A stretch of 32,000 bases of DNA. Origin: Candidatus Thorarchaeota archaeon (GTDB taxonomy: Archaea; Asgardarchaeota; Thorarchaeia; Thorarchaeales; Thorarchaeaceae). The translations under genes and the position numbers were made by a program. Of the stretch, positions 474-24,263 are shown piece by piece (position 1 is the stretch's first letter; each line of letters begins with the position of its first letter). Below the pieces are notes generated by a model that was not told the DNA's origin, ran no database searches, and saw nothing but the letters and a program-made list of their open reading frames with translations. The stretch lies in NCBI GenBank assembly GCA_008080745.1, contig SHMX01000005.1:150001-182000 (forward strand). The letters are read 5' to 3'.

Positions 474-719
474 CTTAATCGTCCCGTGGATTACAATTAT
501 AGTTCAGCATTTTCGCTGAGAGTACATTGAAAAAGGTTACTGAAACTCTGCTTGACCATCTTCATAAAAGCATGGTTATTATTGATGACTAGTATCTTGG
601 ATTGGAGGTAGTAAGATTAAACTATTTTATTAATCACAGAATTGAATCAATATGATTGGATGAAATAACTTATTTATCCCTCATGATTCGGTTTCGATGC
701 TTATATTTATGCCTCGAGG

Positions 720-1403: not shown

Positions 1404-1515
1404 TTTATGAATTTAGAAACCAATCTTCGTATTTGCACTAACTTATCATACATCCCTGATTGTACAATTGAATGGGTATAATCGTTTTCTAACTAATTAA
1501 TAATCTCTTTCAAAT

Positions 1516-2202
1516 CTATCGGAATTCTTCTATATACATGATTCTCATTTCGAATGCTTCTGCAAATTCCTCTCCCACAAAAGGACCTCTATAGCGCATA
1601 TTAGCTTCTAGACTCTTTCTAGAAAAATACGGTCTTCTTTCCAATTCGGATTTATACTCCCAAAGCGCTTTAAGTTTGGTTTCAACCTCCTTTTTAGTTA
1701 GTGGAACGAAAACGTTGGGTGAAAACCCTTGACAGTCCAAGGGCACTTCATAACTCAATAAAGTAGATTTTGTCCCCTTAAACGCTCTGAATGCCTCATG
1801 AGCTATAACTGCATGGTCTTGATGCACATCTTTTTCCCAATGAGTGAATACAATATCAAAATGAGTTTCTTTTCTAAGATCATAGAGATATTGGAGAATT
1901 TCTTGTCGATAAGCAGGTAATTTTCTAACAGGGAAGTCTAGTATTCTCAGATCTTGAATCCCAACAATCTTCGAGGCATTGACACATTCTTTTCTTCTGA
2001 TATCTTTTGGATGTTTAGGATCAGCAGCATCTTCACAACCGGAAAAGACTACTGATGTTATATGCACTCCCGAATTAGCGAGTTTGGTGATTACTCCTCC
2101 ACACCCAAATTCTGCATCGTCTGCATGTGCAGATATGAATAATACTTTCTTTGCATTGAACTCCACATTGCTACTTCCTTTGCGGTTTATCAAAACGTAC
2201 AA
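1516..2202 (-). CDS. PIG-L/LmbE-family Zn-dependent N-deacetylase
   Basis: SAHADDAEFGCGG (HxDD) and HQDH (HxDH) metal/catalytic motifs, plus C-terminal AEAFE. The true start may be GTG at 2166. Confidence 0.9.
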   Translation of the reverse strand: MYVLINRKGSSNVEFNAKKVLFISAHADDAEFGCGGVITKLANSGVHITSVVFSGCEDAADPKHPKDIRRKECVNASKIVGIQDLRILDFPVRKLPAYRQEILQYLYDLRKETHFDIVFTHWEKDVHQDHAVIAHEAFRAFKGTKSTLLSYEVPLDCQGFSPNVFVPLTKKEVETKLKALWEYKSELERRPYFSRKSLEANMRYRGPFVGEEFAEAFEMRIMYIEEFR

Positions 2203-2278
2203 AAAGTCATTGTACAGTTTTTAGAGTGATATTTAATTGTTCAGTCTTTGAGATTGAAAGGTTTATTGGTGTCTACAG

Positions 2279-3394
2279 ATGTATCCGGGAATTGAATGTA
2301 AAGATATAGAAATCGGCGAAAATTTTGACCTGGGACCAGGTGTTTCCATTAAAGCAAAACAAGTACGGATTGGTGATAATGTATCCATTGGTTCTCTTAG
2401 TTCCGATGAAGCTTTCCGGCACCCTGGGGGTGTTCAGATAAATGTTGATAGTCTGGAGATTGGAGATTCATCCAATATATCCCGTTCAGTCTTAATCAAA
2501 GGCGGTTCTATTTCTTTTGGAATGAAAGTCACTATTCGGGAATATAGCACTATAAATGTTCGTCAGAAATTATATCTTGATGACCTCTGTTATATCAGTC
2601 CTTATTGCAGGGTAAATGGAAGGGATATCAAAATAGGCAAAAACTTTCGAATGCTGACATGGGCCAATATTGGTGGTGGTAGCTGTTTTGAAGTTCAGTC
2701 AAAGCTTAGAATGGGTGATAATTGTCACCTTGGAGAATTCGCTCAGATAAATACCGCTGATAGTATTCAAATCGGCCACGAGGTCGGTATTGGTATACGT
2801 TCTAGCGTTTTCACACATGGTGCCTATCAATCTGTCATAAAAGGCTATCCGGTTGAATTTGGTCCGGTCCAGATTGGAAGCTATTGTTGGCTTCCTCATG
2901 CTTACGTCTTACCTAATGTGAATATTGGCGAAGGTACCGTGGTAGCAGCAGGTTCTGTGGTCAACAAGAGTTTACCTCCCTATAGCTTAGCAGGAGGAGT
3001 GCCTGCAAAAGTTATTCGAAGTGACATATACAAGAACCCCCCCTCTGATATTCCCCTACGAGACCTACTGGGAGGATTACTGGTTCGTCTCGATCAGATT
3101 CTCAAAGATTCTTTTGGAGAAAAAGAAACATCCCGTGGAGGAGCAGGCTATTTTCATGGTTCTGACCATAGGCTGGTAGTTTGCGAATCGTTGGATTCTG
3201 AAGATATAAAAAAGCTAAATGTACAACCAAATGATACCTTTATTGTTCGAAAAAATGATCTATCTAAAGATGAAATTGAGGAAATTGGAATCACTGTAAT
3301 TGACGTAACAAATCTTCTAGTTATTGGCCAAACTAATGAATATGCTAGGAGGGTTACTAATCAACTTAGAAGATATGGTGTACGTTTACGTTAG
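2279..3394 (+). CDS. Hexapeptide-repeat (left-handed beta-helix) acyltransferase with a C-terminal extension
   Basis: Many [IV]-G-x-x-x-x repeats (IGENFD, IGDNVS, IGDSSN, IGKNFR, IGHEVG, IGSYCW, IGEGTV) and VVNKSLPPYSLAGGVPAKVIR, typical of LbH sugar O-acetyltransferases. Confidence 0.85.
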   Translation: MYPGIECKDIEIGENFDLGPGVSIKAKQVRIGDNVSIGSLSSDEAFRHPGGVQINVDSLEIGDSSNISRSVLIKGGSISFGMKVTIREYSTINVRQKLYLDDLCYISPYCRVNGRDIKIGKNFRMLTWANIGGGSCFEVQSKLRMGDNCHLGEFAQINTADSIQIGHEVGIGIRSSVFTHGAYQSVIKGYPVEFGPVQIGSYCWLPHAYVLPNVNIGEGTVVAAGSVVNKSLPPYSLAGGVPAKVIRSDIYKNPPSDIPLRDLLGGLLVRLDQILKDSFGEKETSRGGAGYFHGSDHRLVVCESLDSEDIKKLNVQPNDTFIVRKNDLSKDEIEEIGITVIDVTNLLVIGQTNEYARRVTNQLRRYGVRLR

Positions 3395-3521
3395 TTTCTC
3401 AACTACATGAGAAAAAATCACCTACTTAATCTATGAAAACAAAGGCTTAGCAACAAACACTACCAATTTACTACCTGCAAAAGCCCACAACGCTATCGTC
3501 AGAATAAGTCAGTTTTATGTG

Positions 3522-3547
3522 GACACTCTCATAATGGCGAGAGTGTC
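3522..3547. repeat. 9-bp perfect inverted repeat (hairpin) between convergent genes
   Basis: GACACTCTC-ataatggc-GAGAGTGTC, in the 3' region shared by the acyltransferase and the 4Fe-4S gene. No adjacent poly-T tract. Confidence 0.55.
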
Positions 3548-3589
3548 TAACTACAAAACATACGAGTATAACTGTTGTTAGATGCACAT

Positions 3590-4414
3590 TCATTCCACGT
3601 CTACAACTTTAGCAATTCTCTCCAAAGCTATATCGTATCCTGCTCTATCGATATGAATTTCGATTGCGTCATTAGGGCATACCTCAACACAACGTCCACA
3701 TGCTCTACAGTTCTTGCCGATTACTGCTCTTCCCTTTACTATATGTATCGCATCAACAAAGCAAACATTTTGGGTACACTTACCACACCCGATACAGCTG
3801 TCATTTACTCGTATTTCCACACCTGGCATTTTGGTCACCTTCTCCCCGATATGGGGTGTGATATCCGGAAGCATGCGCCATAGACAACAACATGGACAGC
3901 AATTACATATTGTTAGAAGTTTTTCACCTGGACCTACATTTAGCCAAACCGAATCCAATTTGTTTCGACCTATCAGGTGAACAAGACCCGCTTCTCTCAC
4001 CTTTTTTACATATTCGAGAGCCTCTTCTTTAGTTACTTTTCGTCCCAAATTTGGATTGATTCCCAAAGTAGCTTCACCCAAGAATAAACATCCATAATCG
4101 ATAGGATAGTCTTTGCACTGCAGCGAATCTCTACAAATACAGAAATTCATAATCCAATGATAGTTCGCCTTTTTGATGAACTCGTCAACAATCTGGGAGG
4201 GAAGAACTGTATCAGTTGGACGTTCTAGTGATTTGCCAATTGTAATGGTCTTATGTGCTGCACTATCTTTGGGCAAATAGATAATATCGTCTCCTTCAAA
4301 GAGCATCCTTTCAATAATGCCTCCAATAATTGGCACATTGGTCAATTTTGCAATAATACGCGTATTTGGAAATGTCTTCTTTAGGAGTGCAACAAACCAG
4401 AGAGGTCTCGCCAT
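3590..4414 (-). CDS. Cys-rich 4Fe-4S binding protein (C-terminal 2x[4Fe-4S] ferredoxin domain plus a CNCCPCCC cluster)
   Basis: CIGCGKC..VC and CRACGRCVEVCP ferredoxin motifs, plus FCICR..C..GC and CNCCPCCC; 18 Cys by hand count. Confidence 0.85.
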   Translation of the reverse strand: MARPLWFVALLKKTFPNTRIIAKLTNVPIIGGIIERMLFEGDDIIYLPKDSAAHKTITIGKSLERPTDTVLPSQIVDEFIKKANYHWIMNFCICRDSLQCKDYPIDYGCLFLGEATLGINPNLGRKVTKEEALEYVKKVREAGLVHLIGRNKLDSVWLNVGPGEKLLTICNCCPCCCLWRMLPDITPHIGEKVTKMPGVEIRVNDSCIGCGKCTQNVCFVDAIHIVKGRAVIGKNCRACGRCVEVCPNDAIEIHIDRAGYDIALERIAKVVDVE

Positions 4415-4556
4415 AAATCGATTAGTGATTCAATAACTGATATTAGTATCGAAATATGATAAAACACCAAATGGCATCTGTCTATAGTGGCATGATGCGG
4501 TATTCTCATAAGTTGTCATGTATATCCTGAATAGGAGAGATAGAGGTGCCTGATAC

Positions 4557-7500
4557 ATGCGGTTAATGAGAACCATCATCATTTTGATAATAGTGGCTGT
4601 GATTTCCACGGTTGTCTTGGGTTCGGTATACGGGTTCTTTCTTGGACAGAGTATATACCAGAACACATACTATACAAAGGCAGGAGTGGACTTCTGGGCA
4701 ACTTGGACATTACGAAATAATATTTTCACGGCTTCGGTATTGTTGACCATATTGAGTATGATTACTCTTCCACAACGTTCTACCCTTCTTACACTTATAT
4801 CAACCATCGCGACAGATGGAAAACCAGTGAGTAAACTAACTCTGGGTCAAGCTGTAGGATGGCGTATCATTCAGGCGGTGGCTCTTTTTCTGATCTATGT
4901 AAGTATTGGGGGCTATTCCTTCACAGGTCAAAATGTTGCCTTTCTGATGATGCTTGTGGGTGATGGTTCGATAAGCATTAATGCTGACCAACTGGGACTA
5001 TTATTCTCACTTCCATTCTATCCACAGACTTCTGCTTCAACCATTGTGGGACTGATTCCTGCATTGGAAGCATATCAATTGTATCTGGGTCTTATCTCGA
5101 CCTTTGTATTTTTCACTGCTGGCCGATTCGTATTGGGCCTGATTTCAAATCTCCTCTCTCAGCGACGTGACTCATATCTTGCAATTTCTCTTGGCTCGTT
5201 CGCGATTGGATTTGGAATCCTTCTTGAGATTCTGGGTGTTCCAATGTGGACAGTCAACGCCGGTACCTATCTTTCCTATCTTGCATTACTAGTGGGTCTT
5301 GCCGCCTCTCTTATAGCCGGTTTCATGTTTGCTGTGGCTAGATTACGTTCTGGGGGTTCAACACAACGGACAAAAAGTAAAATTACGCAACTTGAGCAGG
5401 ATTTAGCGAGGCTTCAGGGTGAGCTACTCTCAGTTAGAAAAGAGTACGAGGAGGGTACAATGGACTTTGCCACCTTCGAGCGGCGTGTTAAGCTACTCCA
5501 AGAAGACCAGTACTACATTAAAGAAGAGCTCCGTAGACTCAAAATAGCTCGTTTTGTTCCAATCATGGGTAGTGATCGCAGCTATGGCTGTGTTGCTTTA
5601 TTTCTCATTGTGATTGTAGCTGTACTACCTATTGCTCAAGTGGTTCTCTATGAGATTCCCATGGATGGAGACCAGTATCTAGAATGGAAATTTAATTATG
5701 AGACTAAAAAAGAGATAACCCTTACCAACTGGGCTGCGGGATTAGAGGATATGCAGATTAAGACCCTGGAGGATTTGACATCAAATGCTACGCCTGAAAG
5801 CGAAGTCGAATCGTTGACTACAGTAAGGCAATGGGACCAGACTGCAAGCTATAAACGGATGAAAAATCAGATTGGCACAAATTGGATGCAATTGTCGGAT
5901 TCTGACATTGTATATCTTGGAGGACATGAGTATTGGGTTGCACCTTTGACATTCGACACTGGCAGGACCAAGACTAATTTCATCAATCAACATCTTTACT
6001 ATACCCATACAGAGGGAATGGTGGTCTTAGATGCTTATAGTGGGGATCTGATAGAGAATGAAAATCTTATTGCGCTGCTAAATAGCAGTGCTGACATCAA
6101 CATATATTATGGTGAGGGTGACGGATTTAGTGATGTTGCTTTTGTGAATGTTCCTGGGTTTACAGAGGTGGGGAATACCACTTTCTCGGCCTCTCCAGAT
6201 TACGTACTTTCCGGCTTTGAATCTCTCTTCTATATGTTCACAATGGGTCCGGAGGCATGGTCATTTATGGGCCGTGATATGAACATGCTCGTAGAACGAG
6301 ATGTACTTTCTCGAGTACGTTCTATCCTTTTACAAGGACTAACTGCAGATTCGGATCCCTATATCGTGGTTGACGATTCAGGTAGACTGCATTATGCAGT
6401 ATCAGTGTATATTGATTATAAGCTTGCTACAGGATACGCTCATGAGAACTATATGCGCTTCATCGGTCAGGTGTTGGTAGATATCGATACAGGTGATCTC
6501 TCGTTCTACAGATCTCCAACTGAAACTGATGAGTTCTTCATAGACAAGACATACATGGAGTATTACCTCTGGCAGGACGCTCCCAGCTGGTTACAAAGCC
6601 AGATGAAGTGGCCCGAGGATATGTACGAAACTCAACTTGAAGTTGCTTACATCTACCATGTTATAGATGGCCTTGTCTGGCGAGGAGGCCTTGATTTCCA
6701 TCAGACTCCCGATGGTTCAGATACCAGATATATTATCATGCAGATTGGTGGAGAAGAGCGCTTTGTAGCTATGCATAACACTGAGTTCAGGGATTCGATG
6801 GGTAGGAACTTGGCAGGACTATATATCATGGGATGCGGAAACAAGGATTTTGGAGAGCTGGTATTCTATAGTGCTGGCGAATTAGGCTTCTCAACGTTAC
6901 TTGGACCAAATGCTGCTGTTCAGGCCTTCGAAACTGCAGATGAGGTGCGTACACAACTTCAACTCTGGGGTGAACATCGATATGGTAATCGTCTCCTCTA
7001 TCATCTTGGAGGTGCCCTCTTTTTCGTTATACCAGTATTCCTAGAGGTGGAGACTTCCTCGGATATTGTCATTGAGAAGCTGGGTGGTGTAGGTCTCGTA
7101 GATGCGCTTACTGGTGAGCGAGTAGAGCTGGGTGAAAATATTGTGGAGGCATATTACAAGATGTTTGGTCTGCTTAACCAGACTGTAATTGAGGAAGGAA
7201 GTGTGGGTATTGAGAGTGCAGTCTTTAATCCTGTTACTATAGAATCTGGAGAATTTGCTGATCTCGTGACTCTTCTAAGAAATAATGACAATGTTACACA
7301 TAATCTGACCATGGATATTGTGGTTTCTTCAGGAAACTTCTCTGTGAATTGGCATGGTGGAGCTGTTACGCCATCGGTGTATAGTACCAATACCACATAC
7401 TCTTTGAATATAGGGCTGGTTGGACCTGGTGACTCGTATGGAACTGCTCCGCAGATCACAGCATATCTGCCATCTGGTCTAGTGTTTGCACAATATGTGG

Positions 7501-7568
7501 TACAGGTGATTCTCAGAACTGAAGAAGGTATATCTGATGAAATCACTTTGTTCTTAACTGTGACTTAA
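4557..7568 (+). CDS. UPF0182-family integral membrane protein with a C-terminal extension
   Basis: N-terminal multi-TM region, then a soluble domain with VRQWD, HLYYTH, IYYGE, DSDPYIVV and YMRF segments resembling COG1615/UPF0182. GAGGTG SD upstream of the ATG. Confidence 0.75.
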   Translation: MRLMRTIIILIIVAVISTVVLGSVYGFFLGQSIYQNTYYTKAGVDFWATWTLRNNIFTASVLLTILSMITLPQRSTLLTLISTIATDGKPVSKLTLGQAVGWRIIQAVALFLIYVSIGGYSFTGQNVAFLMMLVGDGSISINADQLGLLFSLPFYPQTSASTIVGLIPALEAYQLYLGLISTFVFFTAGRFVLGLISNLLSQRRDSYLAISLGSFAIGFGILLEILGVPMWTVNAGTYLSYLALLVGLAASLIAGFMFAVARLRSGGSTQRTKSKITQLEQDLARLQGELLSVRKEYEEGTMDFATFERRVKLLQEDQYYIKEELRRLKIARFVPIMGSDRSYGCVALFLIVIVAVLPIAQVVLYEIPMDGDQYLEWKFNYETKKEITLTNWAAGLEDMQIKTLEDLTSNATPESEVESLTTVRQWDQTASYKRMKNQIGTNWMQLSDSDIVYLGGHEYWVAPLTFDTGRTKTNFINQHLYYTHTEGMVVLDAYSGDLIENENLIALLNSSADINIYYGEGDGFSDVAFVNVPGFTEVGNTTFSASPDYVLSGFESLFYMFTMGPEAWSFMGRDMNMLVERDVLSRVRSILLQGLTADSDPYIVVDDSGRLHYAVSVYIDYKLATGYAHENYMRFIGQVLVDIDTGDLSFYRSPTETDEFFIDKTYMEYYLWQDAPSWLQSQMKWPEDMYETQLEVAYIYHVIDGLVWRGGLDFHQTPDGSDTRYIIMQIGGEERFVAMHNTEFRDSMGRNLAGLYIMGCGNKDFGELVFYSAGELGFSTLLGPNAAVQAFETADEVRTQLQLWGEHRYGNRLLYHLGGALFFVIPVFLEVETSSDIVIEKLGGVGLVDALTGERVELGENIVEAYYKMFGLLNQTVIEEGSVGIESAVFNPVTIESGEFADLVTLLRNNDNVTHNLTMDIVVSSGNFSVNWHGGAVTPSVYSTNTTYSLNIGLVGPGDSYGTAPQITAYLPSGLVFAQYVVQVILRTEEGISDEITLFLTVT

Positions 7569-7575
7569 GGGCGGT

Positions 7576-8505
7576 TTATCCGAACCGCTCTCTGTACCAT
7601 TTTATGGTTTCTTCGAGTCCTGTTTCAAAAGGTATAGTGGGTTCGAAATCTAAGAGTTTCTTCGCTTTCTTCAAAGAACCAAAGCTCTCCTTGACATCTC
7701 CTGCTCTCGGCGGACCATGGATAATCTGCACACTCTCAAAGTTATCTGCTATCTTTTTCGCAATCTCCAGAATTGTTAATACTTCTGTACCACAAATGTT
7801 GATTATCTCACCTGAAATATCTGCGACCTCAGCTGCCCGAATAGTTGCATCAACTACATCATTCACATGTATCATACTTCTTGTCTGAGTTCCATCTCCA
7901 TCGATTGTCAAAGGTTTCTCTTGGAGAGCATCATTGATAAAAATCGAAACCACTCCACTATACGCAGAATATGCTTGTCGGGGACCATAGACATTAAAAT
8001 AACGCAAAAGTGTAGATTCGAGACTGTATGTTTTAATATATGCTTGGATATATTTCTCTGCAGAAGCCTTGGAGGCGGCATAAGGACTAAGACAGTCTAT
8101 GGGCATCGATTCTGTAATTGGCTGTGTATCAGGATTTCCATATACTGCTGCACTGGAACTGAATACAAATCGTCTTGCATCTCTTTCTTTAGCAAGATTT
8201 AGCACATTCAATGTACCTATGGTGTTGTGTTTGTTTACTAGAAGGGGATCTTCAACACTAAGTTTGACAGACGATATTGCGGCTAGATGAAACACATAAT
8301 CCAAATCTTGCTCAATTACTGGAGACAAGTCTTCTGTGATATCCAATTTATGGAACTCAAAGTTTGCACTTGTTGGTAGATTTTCCATTATGCCAGTTGA
8401 TAGATTATCTATTCCAATAACTGTGAATCCTTTCTCAAGCAATTTATCCGTGAGATGACTTGCTATGAATCCAGCACAACCTGTGACAAGAGCGGTCTTT
8501 ACCAT
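7576..8505 (-). CDS. Extended SDR NAD-dependent NDP-sugar epimerase/dehydratase (GalE/WbpP-like)
   Basis: TGCAGFIASH, FHLAA, SSAAVYG, catalytic YAASK and LRYFNVYGPRQ. Confidence 0.92.
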   Translation of the reverse strand: MVKTALVTGCAGFIASHLTDKLLEKGFTVIGIDNLSTGIMENLPTSANFEFHKLDITEDLSPVIEQDLDYVFHLAAISSVKLSVEDPLLVNKHNTIGTLNVLNLAKERDARRFVFSSSAAVYGNPDTQPITESMPIDCLSPYAASKASAEKYIQAYIKTYSLESTLLRYFNVYGPRQAYSAYSGVVSIFINDALQEKPLTIDGDGTQTRSMIHVNDVVDATIRAAEVADISGEIINICGTEVLTILEIAKKIADNFESVQIIHGPPRAGDVKESFGSLKKAKKLLDFEPTIPFETGLEETIKWYRERFG

Positions 8506-14853: not shown

Positions 14854-15618
14854 ATGCTTGTAGTCTTTCTAGTGTTGTTCATACTGTCTTTCATATGTGA
14901 ATATGCGGCAGCCACATTAGGAATGGGTTATGGTACGACTCTCGCTCCCCTTCTCCTCATTGCAGGATATGCTCCTTTGGTATTGGTGCCTGTCATTCTC
15001 TTTAGTCAATTCTTTGCAGGGTTTATAGCTGCAGGATTTCATCACAAGTTCGAAAATATGGATTTGAAAGATAATCATCAACGATCTGCTATAACGATTT
15101 TTACAATAACAGGAATAATCGGTGTTGTTGTATCTATATTGGCAAGTATTTCTCTTCCCTCAATTATCGTGAAGACATACATTGCAATCACTGTCATTCT
15201 GGTCGGCATTCTCACCTTTGTGGATGGTGGTCATCATACTCCCTATTCACAGAGAAAATTAGCTGGATTGGGGATATTAGCAGCCTTCAACAAGGGTATG
15301 TCTGGGGGAGGTTACGGCCCAATCACTACGGCTGGCCAAATGATAAGCGGAATTCCTCCAAGAGCGGCCATTGCCATCACGGCCTTAGTTGAAGGTATTA
15401 TTTGCATAATTGGTGTTATACTCTACTATCTATTAGCAGCTCCAGTAGACCTATTATTACTTGCCAGTGTAACGGCTGGTGGGATTGTAGCCGCACCTCT
15501 TTCTGCATTCACAACAAAGACTCTCAAGCAAGAGTCTGTTAAGAAGGCTGTAGCCATTGCCATTATTCTGATAGGTATTGTTAGCCTCTTCCTTGTGATA
15601 ATATATCCAGTGTCCTAA
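14854..15618 (+). CDS. TauE/SafE-family sulfite/organosulfur exporter-like membrane protein
   Basis: Twofold repeated Gly-rich motifs (AATLGMGYG and GMSGGGYG), about 8 TM segments, GGGAGG SD, next to sat. Confidence 0.85.
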   Translation: MLVVFLVLFILSFICEYAAATLGMGYGTTLAPLLLIAGYAPLVLVPVILFSQFFAGFIAAGFHHKFENMDLKDNHQRSAITIFTITGIIGVVVSILASISLPSIIVKTYIAITVILVGILTFVDGGHHTPYSQRKLAGLGILAAFNKGMSGGGYGPITTAGQMISGIPPRAAIAITALVEGIICIIGVILYYLLAAPVDLLLLASVTAGGIVAAPLSAFTTKTLKQESVKKAVAIAIILIGIVSLFLVIIYPVS

Positions 15619-15666
15619 GAGATGATAGTATGAACCTTACTAACGATTGAATTAGATAGGTGACAA

Positions 15667-16818
15667 ATGACAATGATTACCCCACATGGTGGAAAACTGG
15701 TAGATAGAAAAGCTACCAAAGAAGACAGAGAGAAGATTCTGAAAGAGTTCGACTCGTATCATAGTCTTTCATTAGACAAGGAAGATGCCCAAGAATTAGA
15801 CAATATAGCTTATGGTGTATTTAGCCCTCTAGAGGGCTTTCTAACCCAGAAAGATTTCAAATCAGTATTAGAAAAAGGCAGATTGCTGGATGGTACCCCT
15901 TGGACAATTCCAATTGTTCTTGACGTTGAAGAGAGTGAGATTGGCGAAACAAAACCTGGGGATATTGTTGGATTGACGTATAATGGTCAAGCAACGGCAA
16001 TCATTGAAGTAGAAGATATTTATGAATATGATAAGATGCACTTCAAAACTGCGGTTTTTGCCACAACGGACGATGCACATCCTGGTGTGGAAAAAGTAAA
16101 TGATATGAAACCTCTATTGATTGGTGGTAAAATAACTCTTCTTAACGACATTGGTAATCCTTATCCTAGTTATACCTTGTCACCTAAACAAACCCGTGAC
16201 TTGTTTGAGCAGAAAGGTTGGAAAACTGTTGTAGCATTTCAGACCCGTAATACTCCTCATTTAGGACATGAATATGTGCAGAAAACTGCATTATCTATCA
16301 CCGATGGACTGTTCATTAATCCACTAATCGGAAAGAAAAAGTCGGGTGATTTTAAAGATGAGGTGATATTAGAGTCTTACAAGGCACTAATGCATCATTA
16401 CTATCCTAAGAAGCATGCTTCGATGGCAGTACTTCATACTGAAATGAGATATGGTGGTCCCAAAGAAGCTGTACATCATGCTATTATGAGACAGAATTTC
16501 GGTTGTACCCACTTTATTGTGGGTCGAGATCATGCAGGTGTCGGAGACTATTACGGTCCATTCGACGCTCACAAAATTTTTGATGAGTATCCCGATCTCG
16601 AAATCAAACCAATTTTCTTCCGCTCTTTCTTCTTCTGCAGAAAATGCAATAGTATTGCTAATGACAAAGTCTGTCCGCATTCTGGAGAGGATATAATCAT
16701 TTTTGCAGGGCGAAGAATTCGAGCAATGTTGAACGATGGTGAGGTTCCCCCTTCTGATATGATGAGACCTGAAGTGGCAGAAACTATTCTGAGTTATGAC
16801 CATCCCTTTGTAGAATAG
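15667..16818 (+). CDS. sat: Sulfate adenylyltransferase (ATP sulfurylase)
   Basis: PHGGKLV, FSPLEGF, AFQTRNTPHLGHEY, MRYGGPKEA..HA..RQNFGCTHFIVGRDHAG, Zn site CRKC...CPH; AGGTGA SD. Confidence 0.97.
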   Translation: MTMITPHGGKLVDRKATKEDREKILKEFDSYHSLSLDKEDAQELDNIAYGVFSPLEGFLTQKDFKSVLEKGRLLDGTPWTIPIVLDVEESEIGETKPGDIVGLTYNGQATAIIEVEDIYEYDKMHFKTAVFATTDDAHPGVEKVNDMKPLLIGGKITLLNDIGNPYPSYTLSPKQTRDLFEQKGWKTVVAFQTRNTPHLGHEYVQKTALSITDGLFINPLIGKKKSGDFKDEVILESYKALMHHYYPKKHASMAVLHTEMRYGGPKEAVHHAIMRQNFGCTHFIVGRDHAGVGDYYGPFDAHKIFDEYPDLEIKPIFFRSFFFCRKCNSIANDKVCPHSGEDIIIFAGRRIRAMLNDGEVPPSDMMRPEVAETILSYDHPFVE

Positions 16819-16829
16819 GGGTGTATAAA

Positions 16830-18203
16830 ATGAAGAAAGCTGTACTGCTTGGTTGGGATGGAGTTCCTCCGACATTAGTGTTTGAGGAACTAATCGACCG
16901 AATGCCTAATCTTCGTAAACTATTGCAATCAAGCACGTATGGCCCACTTAGAAGTACTAATCCACCAATTACTGTTCCCGCTTGGATGAGTATGATGACC
17001 GGATGCGATCCGGGCCAACTTGGTATCTATGGATTTCGACACAGAACTCCTGGAGATTACAAGGAGATCTGGATACCTGATTCTACTCAGATTCTCGCTC
17101 CAAAAATTTGGGATATGACTGGTGAAGCAGGGGGTAAGGTTATTGTGATAGGTGTCCCCCCAACATATCCTCCTTCCGAGGTGAATGGATTGCTTGTTTC
17201 CGGGTTTCTAACCCCTGATATTGATAGTCCATATACTTACCCAGAAAGATTGGCTAAAACTATCAAGCAGCTGGTAGGTGAATACAAGCTAGATGTGTTC
17301 TATAGGACGGAGGATAAGGACACATTAGGTGCTGAACTCCTTGAAATGACTGAGAAACGGCATGAGATAGCAAAACACTTCATGCAGAATGAAGAATGGA
17401 ATCTCTTTGTCATGATGGAAGTTGGTCCAGATCGGTTGCATCACGGATTCTGGAGATATTATGACACCACTCACTCTAGATATATTGTTTCTGAGAAATA
17501 CCGATCCCTCTTTATTCAATATTATGAGATGTTAGATCGGCATCTTGGTGAGCTAATGGAGATTCTTCCCGATGAATGCCTTTTCATTTTAGCTTCGGAC
17601 CACGGGGCAAAAGAACGTGAAGGTGCATTTTGTATAAATCAATGGCTTAGAGAGCATGGATTGCTTACTCTAAGAACAGAACCAACTTCTCCCACCTCTT
17701 TTGAGGACTTGGATGTCGATTGGAAACATACCAAAGCATGGGCCTGGGGGGGTTATTACGCTCGTATTTTCATTAATCTTGAGGGATATGAGCGTGAAGG
17801 ATGTATATCTCCTGATGAGTATGAATCATTTCGTGATATGCTGGCAGAAATGTTGAGAGAAATCACTGGTCCCAATGGAGAAAAATGGGCGAATATTGTA
17901 CACAAACCTGAAGACATCTATCAAGAATGTAATGGTGAGTATCCAGACCTCATGCTATATCTTGATGACTTACATTGGCGTGCATCTGGTGGCATGGGGT
18001 ATGATTCTCTCTATTTTTATGAGAGCGATAACGGACCTGATGATGCGATACATGACTGGAATGGTATCTATGTCATCCACGGCCCCAATCATACGCACAG
18101 TAGGCGTGATAATCAGAATATACTGGATATTGCTCCTACTATTTTGAAACATTTGGGATTGAAAGTCCCATCCTATATGAAAGGAAAAACAATACGGAGT
18201 TAA
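16830..18203 (+). CDS. Alkaline phosphatase superfamily, nucleotide pyrophosphatase/phosphodiesterase-type (COG3379-like) protein
   Basis: GWDG, STNPPITVPAWMSMMTG (Thr nucleophile), PDRLHH, SDHG and HDWNG metal ligands. Start moved from GTG 16821 to ATG 16830, after a GGGGTG SD. Confidence 0.88.
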   Translation: MKKAVLLGWDGVPPTLVFEELIDRMPNLRKLLQSSTYGPLRSTNPPITVPAWMSMMTGCDPGQLGIYGFRHRTPGDYKEIWIPDSTQILAPKIWDMTGEAGGKVIVIGVPPTYPPSEVNGLLVSGFLTPDIDSPYTYPERLAKTIKQLVGEYKLDVFYRTEDKDTLGAELLEMTEKRHEIAKHFMQNEEWNLFVMMEVGPDRLHHGFWRYYDTTHSRYIVSEKYRSLFIQYYEMLDRHLGELMEILPDECLFILASDHGAKEREGAFCINQWLREHGLLTLRTEPTSPTSFEDLDVDWKHTKAWAWGGYYARIFINLEGYEREGCISPDEYESFRDMLAEMLREITGPNGEKWANIVHKPEDIYQECNGEYPDLMLYLDDLHWRASGGMGYDSLYFYESDNGPDDAIHDWNGIYVIHGPNHTHSRRDNQNILDIAPTILKHLGLKVPSYMKGKTIRS

Positions 18204-18208
18204 TAGAA

Positions 18209-18733
18209 ATGAAACGAAATGGATTTTGCATCTGGCTCACAGGACTTTCAGGAGCTGGAAAGACAACAATATCGAAGAAACTAATAGAACGCTTCAAGGA
18301 GGAGAGATTTATTGAGGCTATGGATGGAGACGAGATTCGTAAAGGATTGAGTCGCGACCTCGGCTTCTCAAAAAAAGACCGCAACGAACACAATAGACGA
18401 GTGATATTCTGCACCAAACTCTTGGTGAGAAATGGTGTTATTGTCAACGTTGCATTGATTTCTCCTTATAGGGAAACCCGTGCTTTCGCTAAAACGGAGA
18501 TTCCAAACATGATGGAGGTCTTTGTGAAGGCACCACTTGATGTCTGCATAGAACGAGATCCCAAAGGGCTTTATGAAAAAGCATTAGCTGGTGAAATCAA
18601 ACAGTTTACTGGTATTGATGACCCCTATGAGGAACCGCTTGAGCCAGATCTCATCGTTGAAACCCACAAGGAAACAGTCGATGAATCGGTTGATAAAATA
18701 ATTGCAAAAGCTAAAGAGCTAGGATACCTATAG
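18209..18733 (+). CDS. cysC: Adenylyl-sulfate (APS) kinase
   Basis: IWLTGLSGAGKTT P-loop, DGDEIR, LGFSKKDR, ISPY, RDPKGLY, FTGIDDPYEEP. Confidence 0.96.
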   Translation: MKRNGFCIWLTGLSGAGKTTISKKLIERFKEERFIEAMDGDEIRKGLSRDLGFSKKDRNEHNRRVIFCTKLLVRNGVIVNVALISPYRETRAFAKTEIPNMMEVFVKAPLDVCIERDPKGLYEKALAGEIKQFTGIDDPYEEPLEPDLIVETHKETVDESVDKIIAKAKELGYL

Positions 18734-18757
18734 ATTAAGTTATGGACTGATGAGAAT

Positions 18758-18997
18758 ATGCCAAAGACCAAGTCACGAAAAGGAAAATTCACATCGGTAT
18801 CGATTCCAATTCCTCTCTTCAGAAAGATTGAGGAACACATCGCTGATACTGGTTTTACCTCTGTATCAAGTTATGTCACATACATATTGAGAGAGATTGT
18901 TGCAGAATCCGCATCTGAATCTTCTAGTGCGAGCTCTGCTAAAGAGGATCAGAAAAAGGTCAAAGAACGACTACGGGCTTTGGGCTATCTAGATTAG
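18758..18997 (+). CDS. CopG/ribbon-helix-helix DNA-binding protein with a C-terminal ERLRALGYL tail
   Basis: TSVSIP strand, helix LFRKIEEHI, then FTSVSSYVTYILRE; Ser-rich linker and KVKERLRALGYLD. Confidence 0.8.
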   Translation: MPKTKSRKGKFTSVSIPIPLFRKIEEHIADTGFTSVSSYVTYILREIVAESASESSSASSAKEDQKKVKERLRALGYLD

Positions 18998-19071
18998 ATA
19001 TGTAGTTCGTTGATTGTTTACTACCTCACAAGCTCACAAAGTGTGATGATTTACACTTGGTCAAGGATATC

Positions 19072-19108
19072 TGAATGCGGCTCCCCCGCATTCACTTTCT
19101 CCTTTCTT
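19072..19108 (+). terminator. Hairpin plus pyrimidine tract downstream of the tauE-sat-NPP-cysC-RHH unit
   Basis: TGAATGCGG-ctccc-CCGCATTCA (9-bp perfect stem, 19072-19094), then CTTTCTCCTTTCTT. Confidence 0.65.
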
Positions 19109-19267
19109 GCTATTAAATCCAATCCCATTCTGTTGAATCTAGTTATTTATGGGTAAATTCCCATGCGAGATTCTTTGATAGCGAATTTCGAGATGTATGA
19201 CAAGCGATTAGTTCTTAATCTATCTTAAACTCAAAAAGTTAGCAAACATGATTATTGGTGGAGTATT

Positions 19268-20101
19268 ATGGTCAAAGAAACAGACTATCTAGCACTTCTT
19301 CGTGAAACAGTAATTCCCGGGGGTATTGTTTTACGTGCATTACAGGGACGATTGGATAATACTCCAAAAGAGTCAGATTTGCCTGAAGAAATGACAGATG
19401 CGAAATCTACAGCACATACTATTGGAGATGATCTGGTTCAAGAAATAGCACTTCAAATCCTTTCTAGTCATAGTACCGACTTTAGAATAAATGCAGAAGA
19501 AGAAACTCCCAGAGTCAAGATCTTCAATGGCACTCCTACTTCCTATTGCTATCATTTAGACCCTCTGGATGGCACTTTGTCCTTTATCCAGGGCCGTGAT
19601 GGGTTTGCTGTAGGTGCAGCTTTTTCGAGGAATCTAAAGTTTGAGGCATCAGCGATCTATCTTCCTGCCCGAGACGAATTATATTTAGCACAGAGAGGCG
19701 AAGGTGTTCGAGTGGAGTCACAATTTGGAGTGGAAATACCCTTTGAGAAGAAAGATCCTCCATGTGATAAATACATCCAACGTCGTGCAGAGAAGCTTAT
19801 CCCTGTCGTTGAATCTATGGATTTGTCACATCTAGAAACTATGGGAGCACATCATGGTATGTTATGTGTGGCAAAAGGTGAAGCAAGAGTGCTAATGTAC
19901 AGAATGGCAAGTCCTCACGATTTTGGAATCCCCCAGGTCATTGTAGAGGAGGCAGGAGGAATATGTACTGATTTGAAAGGTGTTCCAGTATCATATCAAA
20001 CAAATTTTCCAAGAGTATCGCTGTTTCTGGCATTCACAGACCTTGAAACAAAAGACCAATTCTTTGAGCAAGATATTCTAGGAGATATTGATTTTGATTA
20101 A
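19268..20101 (+). CDS. Inositol monophosphatase superfamily protein (possible CysQ-like PAP 3'-phosphatase)
   Basis: NAEE, LDPLDGT and SPHDFGIPQVIVEEAGG (degenerate WD..A...IV.EAGG). The CysQ role is inferred from context only. Confidence 0.82.
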   Translation: MVKETDYLALLRETVIPGGIVLRALQGRLDNTPKESDLPEEMTDAKSTAHTIGDDLVQEIALQILSSHSTDFRINAEEETPRVKIFNGTPTSYCYHLDPLDGTLSFIQGRDGFAVGAAFSRNLKFEASAIYLPARDELYLAQRGEGVRVESQFGVEIPFEKKDPPCDKYIQRRAEKLIPVVESMDLSHLETMGAHHGMLCVAKGEARVLMYRMASPHDFGIPQVIVEEAGGICTDLKGVPVSYQTNFPRVSLFLAFTDLETKDQFFEQDILGDIDFD

Positions 20102-20108
20102 TTTTTCA

Positions 20109-21164
20109 TCATCTCACTTCTTCTGGAGTATCGAATACATGGTTTCTTAATCTTAATCTAGTGATTATGATAATTACACTTAGAAAAATCAAAGGACCCA
20201 GTATAACCATCGCAAGATACATTAGAATACCAATAATGATGGCAAGTTCGCTCAAGAAGCACCACGCAATAGCCAAGACTGAAAAAGTTCCAAAGAGAAG
20301 CCACATTCTCCTCATTGTAATCCCTCTCTCTCCCTCTTCCAATTCAGTATCCTTTGGACCTAACCAGATTAGGAATAAAACCAAGATATAAAATCCAATT
20401 GTAAGAAGAATCGTTTCAATCCCGGGAATCCGTTCAGGAAGAAGCACAAACCACATGAAGATGTAAAGAAATGATAGATATAAAGCGGCAAGTGTCATCC
20501 CTTTCTTTCCTAGTCTTAGTTGCTGGATACTCATTTCTCCATTAGACAACCTCTTAGCAAGGAAGTACGTCAATACTACTAATAGTATATTTCCAAGAAT
20601 CGCGATGATCACAGGCACTAGTTCGGTATTAAGACCTGCTGCAATCATGGTTGCCCCCAAAATGAATGCGAGGATAAATAGAATCTCGTTTTTCTTGTTT
20701 TTTACTAAGAATTTTCCATGACTTGGAATAATTTGTGTCCATTTGGAATCTCCATTTTCATTCAAAGCACTAATTTCGAATACGAAAATAGGTATAATGA
20801 ATGAGAATATTGCATGCCAAAATAACGCTATGACGAGAAACTCCCCAACGGCGAACCCAAGAAAGGTACCAAATTGAGGACTATCTTCTCCCATGTATCC
20901 CGCCCAGATGACCTTTGTCATCCATGATTCATAGAGTCCGTAGATTATTCCCCATAGATAGAGCTGGATAGGAGAAGACCGATGAAATCTCAGAGCAAGA
21001 TTGAGGAGTATAAGTCCATGAAGCCAATAGAGTGGAAATACTACGAAGATTCCCCAGGGGTCCAAGAACCACAGAGGGGCGGAACCAGAGAACACTTCCG
21101 CAAATACTATTGAGAGTACACCAAAATAGACTACACTACCCAAGTTTCTGGATTCGGACTCCAT
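20109..21164 (-). CDS. Hypothetical polytopic membrane protein
   Basis: 351-aa ORF with about 9-10 hydrophobic segments; no family recognised. Confidence 0.75.
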   Translation of the reverse strand: MESESRNLGSVVYFGVLSIVFAEVFSGSAPLWFLDPWGIFVVFPLYWLHGLILLNLALRFHRSSPIQLYLWGIIYGLYESWMTKVIWAGYMGEDSPQFGTFLGFAVGEFLVIALFWHAIFSFIIPIFVFEISALNENGDSKWTQIIPSHGKFLVKNKKNEILFILAFILGATMIAAGLNTELVPVIIAILGNILLVVLTYFLAKRLSNGEMSIQQLRLGKKGMTLAALYLSFLYIFMWFVLLPERIPGIETILLTIGFYILVLFLIWLGPKDTELEEGERGITMRRMWLLFGTFSVLAIAWCFLSELAIIIGILMYLAMVILGPLIFLSVIIIITRLRLRNHVFDTPEEVR

Positions 21165-21229
21165 AATTCCAGGTAGTATATCCTGAATTTAAAACTCACT
21201 GAACTCGGTTAAGATACTTTAAAATGTAT

Positions 21230-21267
21230 AAAAAAAGGGATGAAAGGATGTTTTGTCAACATCCTTT
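21230..21267 (-). terminator. Hairpin plus T7 tract after the surface-protein gene
   Basis: + strand AAAGGATGTT-ttgtc-AACATCCTTT (10-bp stem, 21243-21267) with A7 at 21230-21236, i.e. a hairpin followed by CATCCCTTTTTTT on the - strand. Confidence 0.75.
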
Positions 21268-21280
21268 TCCTAATTGTTTC

Positions 21281-24061
21281 TTATTTCCTTCGTCGTACTG
21301 CCATGACAATGATAATCAGTGCAAGCACTCCTATCACTATTAGAAGCAAGGTTTGAGTATCGAGCCACTCTGGAAGACCTGGAATTATCGGCCCGCCTGT
21401 TGGTTCAGTTACTGTTACCAGAACTATATCCTCACTGAGATGTCCAAGTGTATCATTGACCTTTAGTGTGAAAAAGTATGTACCTGGAGTCAAATCATCG
21501 AGGTCTAGGACCACGGAATCCCCATCCCATACTCCACTATCATACTCGGTAGAATTCAGAAGAATTACGTAATGACTTGGATTTGCATCAGATGCCACCC
21601 AGGTCAAAGTATTGCCTGTTGTACCAGCTTCCATCTCCATGTCGGATGGATTACTAATTAATGGAGCAGTAGTGTCAACAACGGTGACAAAGACAATATC
21701 GCCACGTGGATGACCTGAATCGCCAATAACTCGGCATTCAACGGTGTGAAAACCTAAGCCAATAGCATCAACATTTACATTGATTGCTGAGCCATCCCAG
21801 CTGCCGCTATCGACTACACTTCCGTCGATAAACACTTGATATGTGTCGGGTGATGAATCTGTTGGGTTCCAGGTAATAGAATGACCCGTACTACCATCTT
21901 CATATTGAATGTCTGCCGGATGATCGATTTCAGGTAAATTCAACATGAAATTGATTTCGTTCAGGTAAATCTCAAAGCCATCCATGTATGCTGAGCTGTC
22001 CGCATCACCGCGAAGACCGTTCAACATGAACCCATTGAATAGTACCTGATTAGTATTGGTCAGAACAATTGATCCGTTGCCGTCCTGCTCAGTCGGAGTA
22101 GCTCCCGTTAGGGCTGTAGCATTATCAAAGACTTGTAGCTTGAAGCCATCAATCGTGAACCCAGTGCTGGCTATATTCAAGGTCGGTGCATTATAGTTCA
22201 CAAGACCGTCGAATATCGGATGTGAGTTGTCCCAGATGTATGATGGAGCATTACTCATGATAGTTTCTGTCCAGTTAACACCAATGAATGACCACAATGG
22301 GTCTTCCTTTTCAAATTCAAACGTCCAGGAGGTCAATATCATCTGTTTCCCGGTTTCCAAGTAGTCCAAGATATGTGGATAGGAGTCTTGTCTCTGCCAG
22401 TTACAGTTGTCAATTATGGTAAGGTCCCAGTCATCACCGTACCATGTACCATTGAGAGTCGCATTTAAGCCCGTTTCAGTGTAAGTGAGATAGAAGGGTA
22501 TCTCGAGCTGGTTCAGGGCATCTGCTACCATAGTGCGATAATAGTTACCACCGTAGGGGTCATCAGTGTAGAGTAGTACTTTTGCATCATCAGCTGTTAG
22601 CCAATTAGCAACATTCACAGCCCACTTCGAATTATTAGCGGAATCAACATTGGATAGAAAGTTGATATCCCCTGCAAGAAGTATCCGGCCATCTCCAATC
22701 TCCTGAAAAGCTATAACTGTATTCTGTTCATCCATTGCCAGAGGAGTAGCAGATCCAGAATAGTTGACATACGTACCACCACTAAATTCTAGCTCATCCA
22801 CATCTTCCATAGTTGGATGATTCATTAGTTCAGTAGTGGTGAATGAGAACGTATTGTAATTATCTGTCAAGTTGATTCTTAGGTCACTATTTGAGAGAAG
22901 ATAATTGAGGTTCTGGTGCTCATCTAGAAATCCTGAGTTATCACCTAATGCTATCAAACTTCCACCAGCATTGACCCAATCATTGATTGCGGTCACTTCA
23001 CTTGCAGTGAAATTTATTTCAGGTGTATTTATTATCACGATGTCATACGGCGCAAGGACGCCAGCTGTAAAGTTTCCTACTGAGGGCCACAGTTTATCAA
23101 ATGTGTATCTTCTGCTTACAAGATCGTCCCTTAGTGTACTAAATCTTGAATCAGAATTAAATCCTGTTGGATCTCCTGCGTCGACGGGATAATAGTTGTT
23201 ATGTGCGACATCAAACAATATCTTTCCCTTGGGCCGAGGAGCTAGCCAACCAATGGCGTCAAGTAGCATGGATTCCCAGTCGGTCGGGAAGTCAGGTACA
23301 GGCACTCCAAAGAAGGCTGCTCTACCACCCTTATCTGGTGCGTCAATGGAAATTGCCGTTACTAAATCATCCGATCCATTTAATCGTGCAATCTTCGTTA
23401 GATACGGCGAAACAGATGTGTCCATCAGAGCAGTCCAATTATAGACCGCCCAGCTGGCATAGTCATGTACTAGATATGAACCATTGGCATAACTTTGTGA
23501 GATTGGTGTTTTTTCAACTATCTCGCTAACGTTGGTAGATGAATACTTCCACCATTCAAGAAAGCCATGAGATTGACTTTCATTCTCTCTAGGAAGTATA
23601 CCGCCATATACTAAGAATGCGGCTGCAGAATCGATAGCTAAAACACCTCCTCCTGCTAACCAAAAATCTTTGACATGCTTTGTGATGTTTTCTCTGGGAA
23701 CATTATCCGCCAGTATCACAACATCATAATTGGCAGTATTTAGTTCGTAATTCTCGATATCTGTACTATTTATCTTTGTTACATCATAACTTGAACTAGA
23801 CAGCACATCATAGATTTGCGTATAGTTATTTGTCAATGAAAGCACTGCATAATCTGGGGCTGTCGTGTTTGTTTCATTGTAGAATGCCACTCTGAATACC
23901 CTATCATTGGGGAGTTCTGCGGTTTCTACATCATTATTTCTTGCATCAGCAAATGTGACTCTGTCATCTTGAAGGCGTGCAGGGGATATTATTCCATTTG
24001 GCACAATACAGATTCCTACAAGAAATAACATTATCAACAATATTGTTTGGGCGCGTTTCAT
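21281..24061 (-). CDS. Large cell-surface glycoprotein: signal peptide, three GATase-like (DUF4350/GIFT-type) domains, two Ig-like repeats, C-terminal TM anchor
   Basis: Start reassigned to ATG 24061 (GAGGTGG SD; MKR plus a hydrophobic signal). Three YD/WD-hhhh...GG-type alpha/beta units, two repeats of about 90 aa, then P/G linker, TM and RRRK. Confidence 0.8.
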   Translation of the reverse strand: MKRAQTILLIMLFLVGICIVPNGIISPARLQDDRVTFADARNNDVETAELPNDRVFRVAFYNETNTTAPDYAVLSLTNNYTQIYDVLSSSSYDVTKINSTDIENYELNTANYDVVILADNVPRENITKHVKDFWLAGGGVLAIDSAAAFLVYGGILPRENESQSHGFLEWWKYSSTNVSEIVEKTPISQSYANGSYLVHDYASWAVYNWTALMDTSVSPYLTKIARLNGSDDLVTAISIDAPDKGGRAAFFGVPVPDFPTDWESMLLDAIGWLAPRPKGKILFDVAHNNYYPVDAGDPTGFNSDSRFSTLRDDLVSRRYTFDKLWPSVGNFTAGVLAPYDIVIINTPEINFTASEVTAINDWVNAGGSLIALGDNSGFLDEHQNLNYLLSNSDLRINLTDNYNTFSFTTTELMNHPTMEDVDELEFSGGTYVNYSGSATPLAMDEQNTVIAFQEIGDGRILLAGDINFLSNVDSANNSKWAVNVANWLTADDAKVLLYTDDPYGGNYYRTMVADALNQLEIPFYLTYTETGLNATLNGTWYGDDWDLTIIDNCNWQRQDSYPHILDYLETGKQMILTSWTFEFEKEDPLWSFIGVNWTETIMSNAPSYIWDNSHPIFDGLVNYNAPTLNIASTGFTIDGFKLQVFDNATALTGATPTEQDGNGSIVLTNTNQVLFNGFMLNGLRGDADSSAYMDGFEIYLNEINFMLNLPEIDHPADIQYEDGSTGHSITWNPTDSSPDTYQVFIDGSVVDSGSWDGSAINVNVDAIGLGFHTVECRVIGDSGHPRGDIVFVTVVDTTAPLISNPSDMEMEAGTTGNTLTWVASDANPSHYVILLNSTEYDSGVWDGDSVVLDLDDLTPGTYFFTLKVNDTLGHLSEDIVLVTVTEPTGGPIIPGLPEWLDTQTLLLIVIGVLALIIIVMAVRRRK
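21400..21935 (-). repeat. Two tandem Ig-like protein repeats (approximate bounds)
   Basis: PADIQYEDGSTGHSITW..D.SP.TY..IDG...DSGSWDG...DIVFVTV versus PSDMEMEAGTTGNTLTW..D.NP.HY..LNS...DSGVWDG...DIVLVTV. Confidence 0.75.
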
Positions 24062-24263
24062 ATCAACCACCTCTTCTACGTTTAAGGCACATTTTGTTAT
24101 AAATTCCCCCCTCATCAATTATTATAAATAATATTCATATATTTTATTATTTGAAACAATCTTAGAATAGTAGATTGGCGCTCGAAACCGTCCGCAACGT
24201 CTGCAAACAAACTACCCAAGATTTTTCAATTTGACAATTTCTATCAAGATTGGAGAGTAAACG

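Follow-up and report, generated by a model that had tools for sequence, protein, structure and literature searches.

What does an enzyme of the alkaline phosphatase (AlkP) superfamily do between the two enzymes that make activated sulfate? The question is raised by a stretch of 32,000 nucleotides from Candidatus Thorarchaeota archaeon, an Asgard archaeon (assembly GCA_008080745.1, contig SHMX01000005.1, positions 150,001 to 182,000; this whole stretch is called the window here). At positions 14854-20101 of the window, a gene for an enzyme of the nucleotide pyrophosphatase/phosphodiesterase (NPP) type lies directly between sat, which encodes ATP sulfurylase, and cysC, which encodes the kinase that converts adenosine 5'-phosphosulfate (APS) into 3'-phosphoadenosine 5'-phosphosulfate (PAPS). 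An earlier note on this DNA had proposed that the NPP-type protein might be a sulfotransferase of a non-canonical kind or an enzyme that handles PAPS or APS, a proposal that lost its support in view of a published gene cluster of the same type, the pyrophosphatase activity reported for its member TON_1705 and at least 159 protein clusters in which Sat is fused to the AlkP domain. The reading favored here is that the protein is the dedicated inorganic pyrophosphatase of a sulfate-activation operon of a known kind, and to this reading, together with the working of the module outlined next, we assign a probability of about 0.72. The cluster type and the pyrophosphatase assignment are already known; what is new is an Asgard member of that kind of operon.

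In the proposed working of the module, the permease TauE probably imports sulfate, or would move another sulfur oxyanion across the membrane, and Sat would convert ATP and sulfate into APS and inorganic pyrophosphate (PPi). The NPP-type enzyme would then hydrolyse PPi through a phospho-Thr51 intermediate at a two-metal site, an activity reported in vitro for the positional counterpart in Thermococcus onnurineus, and this hydrolysis would pull the very unfavourable Sat reaction forward. CysC would use a further ATP to turn APS into PAPS, with release of ADP. A protein of the ribbon-helix-helix (RHH) type presumably regulates the genes of the module, and an enzyme of the inositol monophosphatase (IMPase) family could perhaps remove 3'-phosphoadenosine 5'-phosphate (pAp). 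The PAPS would not be reduced here; most likely it feeds the sulfation of surface glycans by a canonical enzyme of the Sulfotransfer_3 family, whose gene belongs to a glycan cluster on a different contig (C3).

The kind of operon in question was described in Pyrococcus yayanosii by Jin et al. (2021, PMC8268124), whose cluster PYCH_17520-17570 consists of copG, an ATP sulfurylase gene, a DHH-family pAp phosphatase gene, PYCH_17550, an APS kinase gene and a TauE gene. PYCH_17550 carries the name "type I phosphodiesterase/nucleotide pyrophosphatase", and the removal of PPi was assigned to it as a proposal. The same authors noted like clusters in T. onnurineus, Ferroglobus, Aciduliprofundum, Aeropyrum and Ignicoccus, and hydrolysis of pAp was reported for the DHH enzyme of T. 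onnurineus as well as for that of P. yayanosii. In T. onnurineus, the genes TON_1704-TON_1707 are assigned to an APS kinase, a pyrophosphatase, a PAP phosphatase and an ATP sulfurylase, respectively (PMC4463584, citing Lee et al. 2009, J Bacteriol 191:3415), and TON_1705 is tabulated as a pyrophosphatase with a kcat of 2.1 per s, a Km of 18.8 uM and a pH optimum of 9.5 (PMC9653972, a secondary table citing Lee et al. 2009). Furthermore, experiments have documented that Sat/CysC reactions need PPi to be removed fast (PMC10322725).

The P. yayanosii locus (CP002779.1) was recovered in this analysis with exactly the published gene content, tauE standing directly after cysC. Its AlkP protein (AEH25414.1) is 45% identical to the window NPP-type protein over 461 aligned positions, that is, over the full length (E = 2e-161), and all of the catalytic residues are kept. 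In every related locus examined, the slot between the DHH gene and cysC is filled by an AlkP gene, and TON_1705 can be assigned to the NPP-type family because it occupies that same position. By this analogy, pyrophosphatase is most likely the activity of the window protein itself.

The window proteins were located by tblastn in about 160 loci from archaeal and bacterial genomes, and synteny was counted within 6 kb in the 100 non-redundant loci that offered at least 3 kb of upstream and 2.5 kb of downstream sequence. The family is large (more than 5000 protein clusters at 90% identity), and its carriers span Asgard archaea, Bathyarchaeia, Thermococci, Archaeoglobi, Nitrososphaeria, Aminicenantes and Eubacteriales. 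The neighborhood survey, a check that the earlier note had suggested, revealed an overwhelming enrichment beside sat and cysC: cysC is a neighbor in 87/100 loci, an RHH gene in 84/100 and sat in 68/100, and only 2/100 have none of the three nearby. The usual order is RHH - sat - (DHH) - AlkP - cysC. This clustering is far beyond chance. For AlkP genes with no sat or cysC nearby, sat was present elsewhere in 4/5 genomes checked and CysC in 5/5.

An unbiased clustering of the neighboring open reading frames (ORFs) at 148 loci also recovered a DHH phosphoesterase gene between sat and the AlkP gene at 41 of them, along with RmlB/GalE-type short-chain dehydrogenase/reductase (SDR) genes at 46, TauE at 27, UDP-glucose dehydrogenase at 16, a sugar nucleotidyltransferase (NTP transferase) at 15, a flippase at 11 and a GT2 glycosyltransferase at 11. 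UDP-sulfoquinovose synthase was considered as an identity for the SDR neighbors and rejected, the corresponding model giving 40-48 bits against a cut-off of 575 and the proteins scoring as RmlB- or GalE-type.

Gene fusions tie the AlkP domain to Sat itself. A search among longer proteins (E <= 1e-60) returned at least 159 protein clusters of Sat-AlkP fusions, and the best 120 of these 159 long matches all combine PUA_2, ATP-sulfurylase and Phosphodiest domains, with Sat at the N-terminus, AlkP at the C-terminus and the catalytic residues intact. AlkP-CysC fusions are rare, with two (P0050 and P0097, about 695 residues) among the 120 best near-length matches. Since the Sat fusions tie PPi removal to the enzyme that releases PPi, the simplest reading of the domain is that of a pyrophosphatase that helps Sat. 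The same logic, a PPi remover physically tied to ATP sulfurylase, would apply to the fusions of APS kinase, ATP sulfurylase and pyrophosphatase that Patron et al. reportedly described in some eukaryotes in 2008, whose fusion partner we take to be a soluble family I-type pyrophosphatase rather than an AlkP-fold enzyme. In the three Sat-AlkP fusion loci inspected (3/3), cysC lies directly downstream and envelope-glycan genes lie around, so these loci do not tell a role tied to Sat from one tied to PAPS; an APS-only context, which would have excluded a PAPS role, was seen in none of the three. Typical Sat-AlkP fusions, for example from Anaerolineae, are about 863 residues long; one (P0258) has 1173 residues, with an unexplained C-terminal extension.

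The module of the window consists of the following genes, all on the forward strand:

14854-15618, forward: anion permease of the TauE/SafE (TSUP) family (PF01925, E = 3.2e-22)
15667-16818, forward: Sat, homo-oligomeric ATP sulfurylase (PUA_2 and ATP-sulfurylase domains; NF003166 at 523 bits and TIGR00339 at 388 bits, both over cut-off)
16821-18203, forward: NPP-type AlkP-superfamily enzyme of 460 residues (P0001; PF01663, E = 2e-43)
18209-18733, forward: CysC, APS kinase (PF01583, E = 1.5e-55; TIGR00455 at 217.8 bits, over cut-off)
18758-18997, forward: RHH/CopG-like ORF of 79 residues (P0370; homologs in the module at 105/148 loci, the P. yayanosii counterpart being annotated copG)
19268-20101, forward: IMPase-superfamily phosphatase (PF00459, E = 3e-23)

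The ORFs and Pfam matches bear out the arrangement described in the earlier note, namely that tauE, sat, the NPP-type gene, cysC and the RHH gene are co-oriented with gaps of 2-48 bp (in order 48, 2, 5 and 24 bp) and are followed by the IMPase-family gene, which comes after a gap of 270 bp. An AT-rich spacer of 169 bp lies 5' of tauE. The true start of the NPP-type gene is probably the ATG at 16830, 11 bp past the sat stop codon, because a 100%-identical database entry has 457 residues and a GGGGTG box stands just upstream of this codon. The window belongs to a genome of 3.16 Mb with a completeness of 97.98%, and its nearest relatives carry the labels Lokiarchaeota or Promethearchaeota.

Compared with the Thermococcales clusters (TON_1704-1707 and PYCH_17520-17570), the window module has the same families, namely sat, the NPP-type AlkP gene, cysC, copG/RHH and tauE. 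It differs in its Asgard host and in the absence of the DHH pAp phosphatase gene, in place of which an IMPase-family gene follows the module. The gene order is also rearranged in the lineage of the window: the RHH gene is found 3' of cysC in the window and in two related loci (L004 and L005), as opposed to 5' of sat in most other loci, and tauE heads the operon instead of trailing cysC as it usually does elsewhere.

The NPP-type protein matches PF01663 at 149.6 bits (cut-off 23), its only Pfam match at E <= 0.001, and belongs to the NPP clade of the AlkP superfamily. It contains the motif PPITVPAW, whose Thr51 was placed by a profile search of the PDB in one column with Thr64, the nucleophile of phosphonoacetate hydrolase (entry 3t02 has Ala at the same column). 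The same column holds the formylglycine Cys of the arylsulfatase 6hhm (I-T-V-P-A-W against I-C-A-P-S-R). Residues D13, T51, D204, H208, D260, H261, D407, D408 and H411 are invariant across two alignments, of 20 and 7 homologs, Sat fusions included, so that both the Thr of TVPAW and the full metal-ligand set that had been read from the sequence at the outset hold up. In the AlkP superfamily, phosphoryl transfer is a reaction to which a Thr nucleophile and two metals are well suited, and an alkyl sulfate ester on Thr would be a poor transfer intermediate. Conservation is very high: the mean column identity across 20 aligned homologs is 62%, and homologs from different phyla are 45-49% identical to the window protein.

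The AlphaFold model of the protein has a mean confidence (pLDDT) of 90.9, and its best PDB matches in Foldseek are ENPP1/3 and the Xanthomonas NPP, with TM-scores of 0.55-0.58 and E values down to 2e-17; PDB searches found no solved structure for any close relative. With the Xanthomonas NPP and ENPP1/3/4/5/6/7, the window protein shares the fold (TM 0.55-0.59), the two-metal site and a Thr nucleophile in a T-x-P motif. The identity to these enzymes is only 12-18%, and unlike them the window protein is predicted to be cytoplasmic, with no evident signal peptide and its catalytic Asp already at residue 13. The nucleophile motif of the family is T-V/I-P-A-W rather than T-F-P-N-H, so that Val or Ile takes the place of the base-stacking Phe found after the nucleophile of classical NPPs, and an invariant F-R-H-R block lies near the position of the classical Asn, a residue mapping that is uncertain in alignments of 12-18% identity. 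The substrate reported for the window-type family is PPi, in contrast to the NPPs that act on nucleotides. A formylglycine sulfatase was considered and rejected, since the C/S-x-P-x-R motif is absent and there is no PF00884 match at E <= 0.001 (some homologs have weak PF00884 matches). At the same threshold, no canonical sulfotransferase profile in Pfam matches the protein.

The fate of the PAPS was approached through family searches of the whole genome. The view of the earlier note that this is a sulfation rather than an assimilation module gains support from this 98%-complete genome, in which no NIR_SIR sulfite reductase, no genuine CysH and no AprA (best score 54.6 bits, cut-off 641.75) was found. 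Sulfotransfer_1 was likewise not found in the genome. The window itself indeed lacks cysH, aprAB, sulfite reductase and any P-loop sulfotransferase, as had been stated, the PAPS_reduct and Sulfotransfer_3 matches of the genome being confined to contigs other than that of the window. The sole strong PAPS_reduct match is a PUA-fused protein of 648 residues that scores far below the CysH and APS-reductase cut-offs. This protein (contig C2, 160747-164265, locus L001) matches the "hypothetical protein" model NF010368 over its cut-off, and proteins of equal size are found again in other Asgard genomes.

A canonical sulfotransferase elsewhere in the genome, which the earlier note had itself named as evidence that would count against its proposal, turned up in the form of a gene for a Sulfotransfer_3 protein of 328 residues on contig C3 (193637-194620, locus L003). 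The gene lies in a glycan cluster, between GT4 and WbqC-family genes and about 2 kb from a UDP-glucose dehydrogenase gene. Its product is the only canonical sulfotransferase detected in the genome and is the likely consumer of the PAPS made by the window module. Among 151 Asgard genomes, Sulfotransfer_3 is present in 21/50 carriers of the AlkP gene and in 40/101 non-carriers (overlap counted by hand), and so there is no phylum-wide phyletic link between the two genes. Within the family of the window genome the figures are 6/6 carriers and 4/21 non-carriers, and these are kin genomes that do not count as independent.

Could the NPP-type protein itself be the consumer of PAPS? It would then be a non-canonical sulfotransferase of the ping-pong type, in which Thr51 accepts the sulfuryl group before this is handed on to a sugar, a lipid or a small molecule. 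The near-universal linkage to cysC, the rare AlkP-CysC fusions and the trios of RHH, AlkP and CysC without nearby sat would suit such an enzyme, but the common fusion partner is Sat and not CysC. The glycan genes beside many modules (the SDR, UDP-glucose dehydrogenase, NTP transferase, flippase and GT2 genes counted above) likewise suggest sulfated glycans, yet the very high cross-phylum conservation argues for a universal small substrate over lineage-specific glycans. No canonical sulfotransferase recurs near the module, many carriers have neither Sulfotransfer_1 nor Sulfotransfer_3, and Jin et al. found no sulfotransferase in P. yayanosii (PMC8268124). Set against this are the canonical Sulfotransfer_3 in a glycan cluster of the window genome and the 40/101 Asgard genomes that have Sulfotransfer_3 and lack the AlkP gene, in which the latter is evidently not needed for sulfation. 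The fold can serve sulfotransfer, as Agl30 (VNG1056C) and Agl31 (VNG1057C), two sulfatase-like members of the AlkP superfamily, are N-glycan sulfotransferases in Halobacterium salinarum (Zaretsky et al. 2025, PMC11980604). By description, the window protein stands apart from this pair: Agl31 is of the arylsulfatase family and the two genes belong to the aglB glycosylation cluster, whereas the window gene lies between sat and cysC and its product, without C/S-x-P-x-R, is structurally nearest to NPPs. A Thr-O-sulfate intermediate would also be chemically unfavourable by the established chemistry of the superfamily, and the positional counterpart in T. onnurineus is reported as a pyrophosphatase with a micromolar Km; a sulfotransferase of this kind is therefore quite unlikely.

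Membership in a family of nucleotide pyrophosphatases and phosphodiesterases, and the position next to cysC, would also fit an enzyme that acts on the adenine nucleotides of the pathway, either as a 3'-phosphatase for pAp or PAPS or as a hydrolase that limits the APS and PAPS pools by cleaving their phosphosulfate group. We consider this very unlikely. The window lacks the DHH pAp phosphatase present in 41/148 related modules, which could leave a place for a 3'-phosphatase, but the AlkP gene is also present where the DHH gene is, so that the two are not alternatives, and in both T. onnurineus and P. yayanosii the hydrolysis of pAp is already provided by a DHH enzyme. Because a separate DHH enzyme accompanies the AlkP protein in P. 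yayanosii and in those 41 loci, the role of pAp phosphatase was rejected for it there. If an enzyme that hydrolyses APS or PAPS were fused to Sat, a futile cycle would result, and the Val/Ile in place of Phe after the nucleophile and the F-R-H-R at the Asn position speak weakly, in an alignment-dependent way, against a nucleotide substrate. That the gene is a generic phosphodiesterase or phosphatase present in the operon by chance, as generic database names such as "alkaline phosphatase family protein" might suggest, is hardly credible, being effectively refuted by the synteny at 98/100 loci across two domains of life and by the fusions to both Sat and CysC.

Several points weigh against the pyrophosphatase reading. 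The genome also encodes a family I pyrophosphatase, which would make the role redundant, and the kcat reported for TON_1705 is low (2.1 per s). The link of TON_1705 to this family rests on gene position and secondary citations. Trios of RHH, AlkP and CysC without a nearby sat make up 20/100 loci, and the Agl30/Agl31 pair is a precedent for sulfotransfer in the superfamily. No canonical sulfotransferase was recurrent within 5 kb of the module in a phmmer search seeded with the Sulfotransfer_3 protein of this genome and in Pfam scans of recurrent neighbor clusters, a survey of limited sensitivity in which singleton neighbors were left out. Sulfotransfer_3 was not found in 29/50 AlkP-carrying Asgard genomes; five high-quality carriers among them also lack Sulfotransfer_1, and one of these five, a 100%-complete genome, has no PAPS_reduct match either. 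Finally, PPi closely mimics a phosphosulfate group, so that pyrophosphatase activity could be a side reaction. It is conceivable, if unlikely, that the activity of the Thermococcus enzyme is such a side reaction on a look-alike and that the family really acts on APS or PAPS, for example as an AlkP-fold sulfotransferase. If so, the family would fill the place of the PAPS consumer in the many archaea and bacteria in which the module occurs without a recognised sulfotransferase or PAPS reductase. These points are not enough to overturn the pyrophosphatase reading, which is built on the biochemical report, the gene order and the Sat fusions.

Other genes seem better suited to a role like that of Agl30/Agl31. 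Just past the sulfate-activation cluster of P. yayanosii (CP002779.1; L164:9386-11023, reverse strand) lies a second AlkP-superfamily paralog of 545 residues, with a Phosphodiest match, weak Sulfatase and SGSH_C matches and 25% identity to the window protein. It is flanked by a Wzx-type flippase gene and a GT2 gene. A similar sulfatase-like gene is found upstream of the Sat-AlkP fusion in another locus (L170), and both are better candidates for such a sulfotransferase than the AlkP gene of the operon.

The gene that follows the module had been described as IMPase/CysQ-like. Membership in the IMPase family stands (PF00459), and the scores do not allow the protein to be called CysQ: the CysQ models give 51.2 bits (TIGR01331, cut-off 228.8) and 31.4 bits (NF008182, cut-off 379), and the HisN and FBPase/IMPase models score about equally, all of them far below their cut-offs. 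The best PDB relatives of the protein are inositol monophosphatases and SuhB. Among the loci compared, the gene adjoins the module only in the window and in its nearest relative (L004), and neither an ortholog of the DHH pAp phosphatase nor a second IMPase was found in the genome by tblastn. It is possible that the IMPase-family enzyme is a pAp phosphatase that stands in for the DHH enzyme of other clusters.

The 79-residue ORF has no significant match in Pfam, NCBIfam or PDB profile searches, in which NikR and RelB appeared as non-significant hints. Its predicted structure has an extended N-terminal segment followed by helices at residues 18-28, 36-57 and 59-74, and this model is compatible with an RHH protein in which a strand-helix-helix core is extended by a C-terminal helix. 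The protein has an acidic linker and a conserved C-terminal LGY[IL](D) tail. The homologs usually stand upstream of sat. The LGY[IL] tail ends 110/111 of the RHH-like proteins of the module, and G-Y-[ILVM] occurs within the last 8 residues of 55/109 adjacent APS kinases. None of the AlkP, Sat, DHH, TauE or SDR neighbors has an LGY-type tail, which may be a docking tail shared by the RHH-like proteins and the kinases.

The operon itself is an ordinary accessory operon. The AlkP gene is present in 50/151 sampled Asgard genomes and in 5/26 of the family to which the window genome belongs, and because of this patchy occurrence the module appears to be an accessory and possibly laterally moved cassette. 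It is spread over Asgard, TACK and Euryarchaeota as well as several bacterial phyla, and surface-glycan genes often lie next to it, a pattern which suggests that glycan sulfation is widespread among anaerobes without sulfate assimilation. Which enzyme consumes the PAPS in many of these carriers is a question that matters to the sulfur and glycan biology of archaea. The pyrophosphatase function, although published, is missing from annotation: public databases name this large family only "alkaline phosphatase family protein" or "nucleotide pyrophosphatase", and as a result the gene is singled out as puzzling again and again.

Downstream of the module, two convergent ORFs of 351 and 945 residues occupy positions 20109-24118 on the reverse strand. 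The 351-residue ORF is without a family match and is 66% conserved beside the module in L004; for the 945-residue ORF, a DUF4350-type match is the sole one over cut-off, the ThuA-type matches being weak. At its other end, the window opens on the margin of a large region of nucleotide-sugar and glycan genes, which comprises window positions 1-8505 and about 98-158 kb of the same contig. This region includes a UDP-glucose dehydrogenase gene that lies across the window start, a PIG-L deacetylase gene, a hexapeptide transferase gene and several more SDR genes upstream, as well as a gene for a GalE/TviC-like epimerase at positions 7576-8505 of the window.

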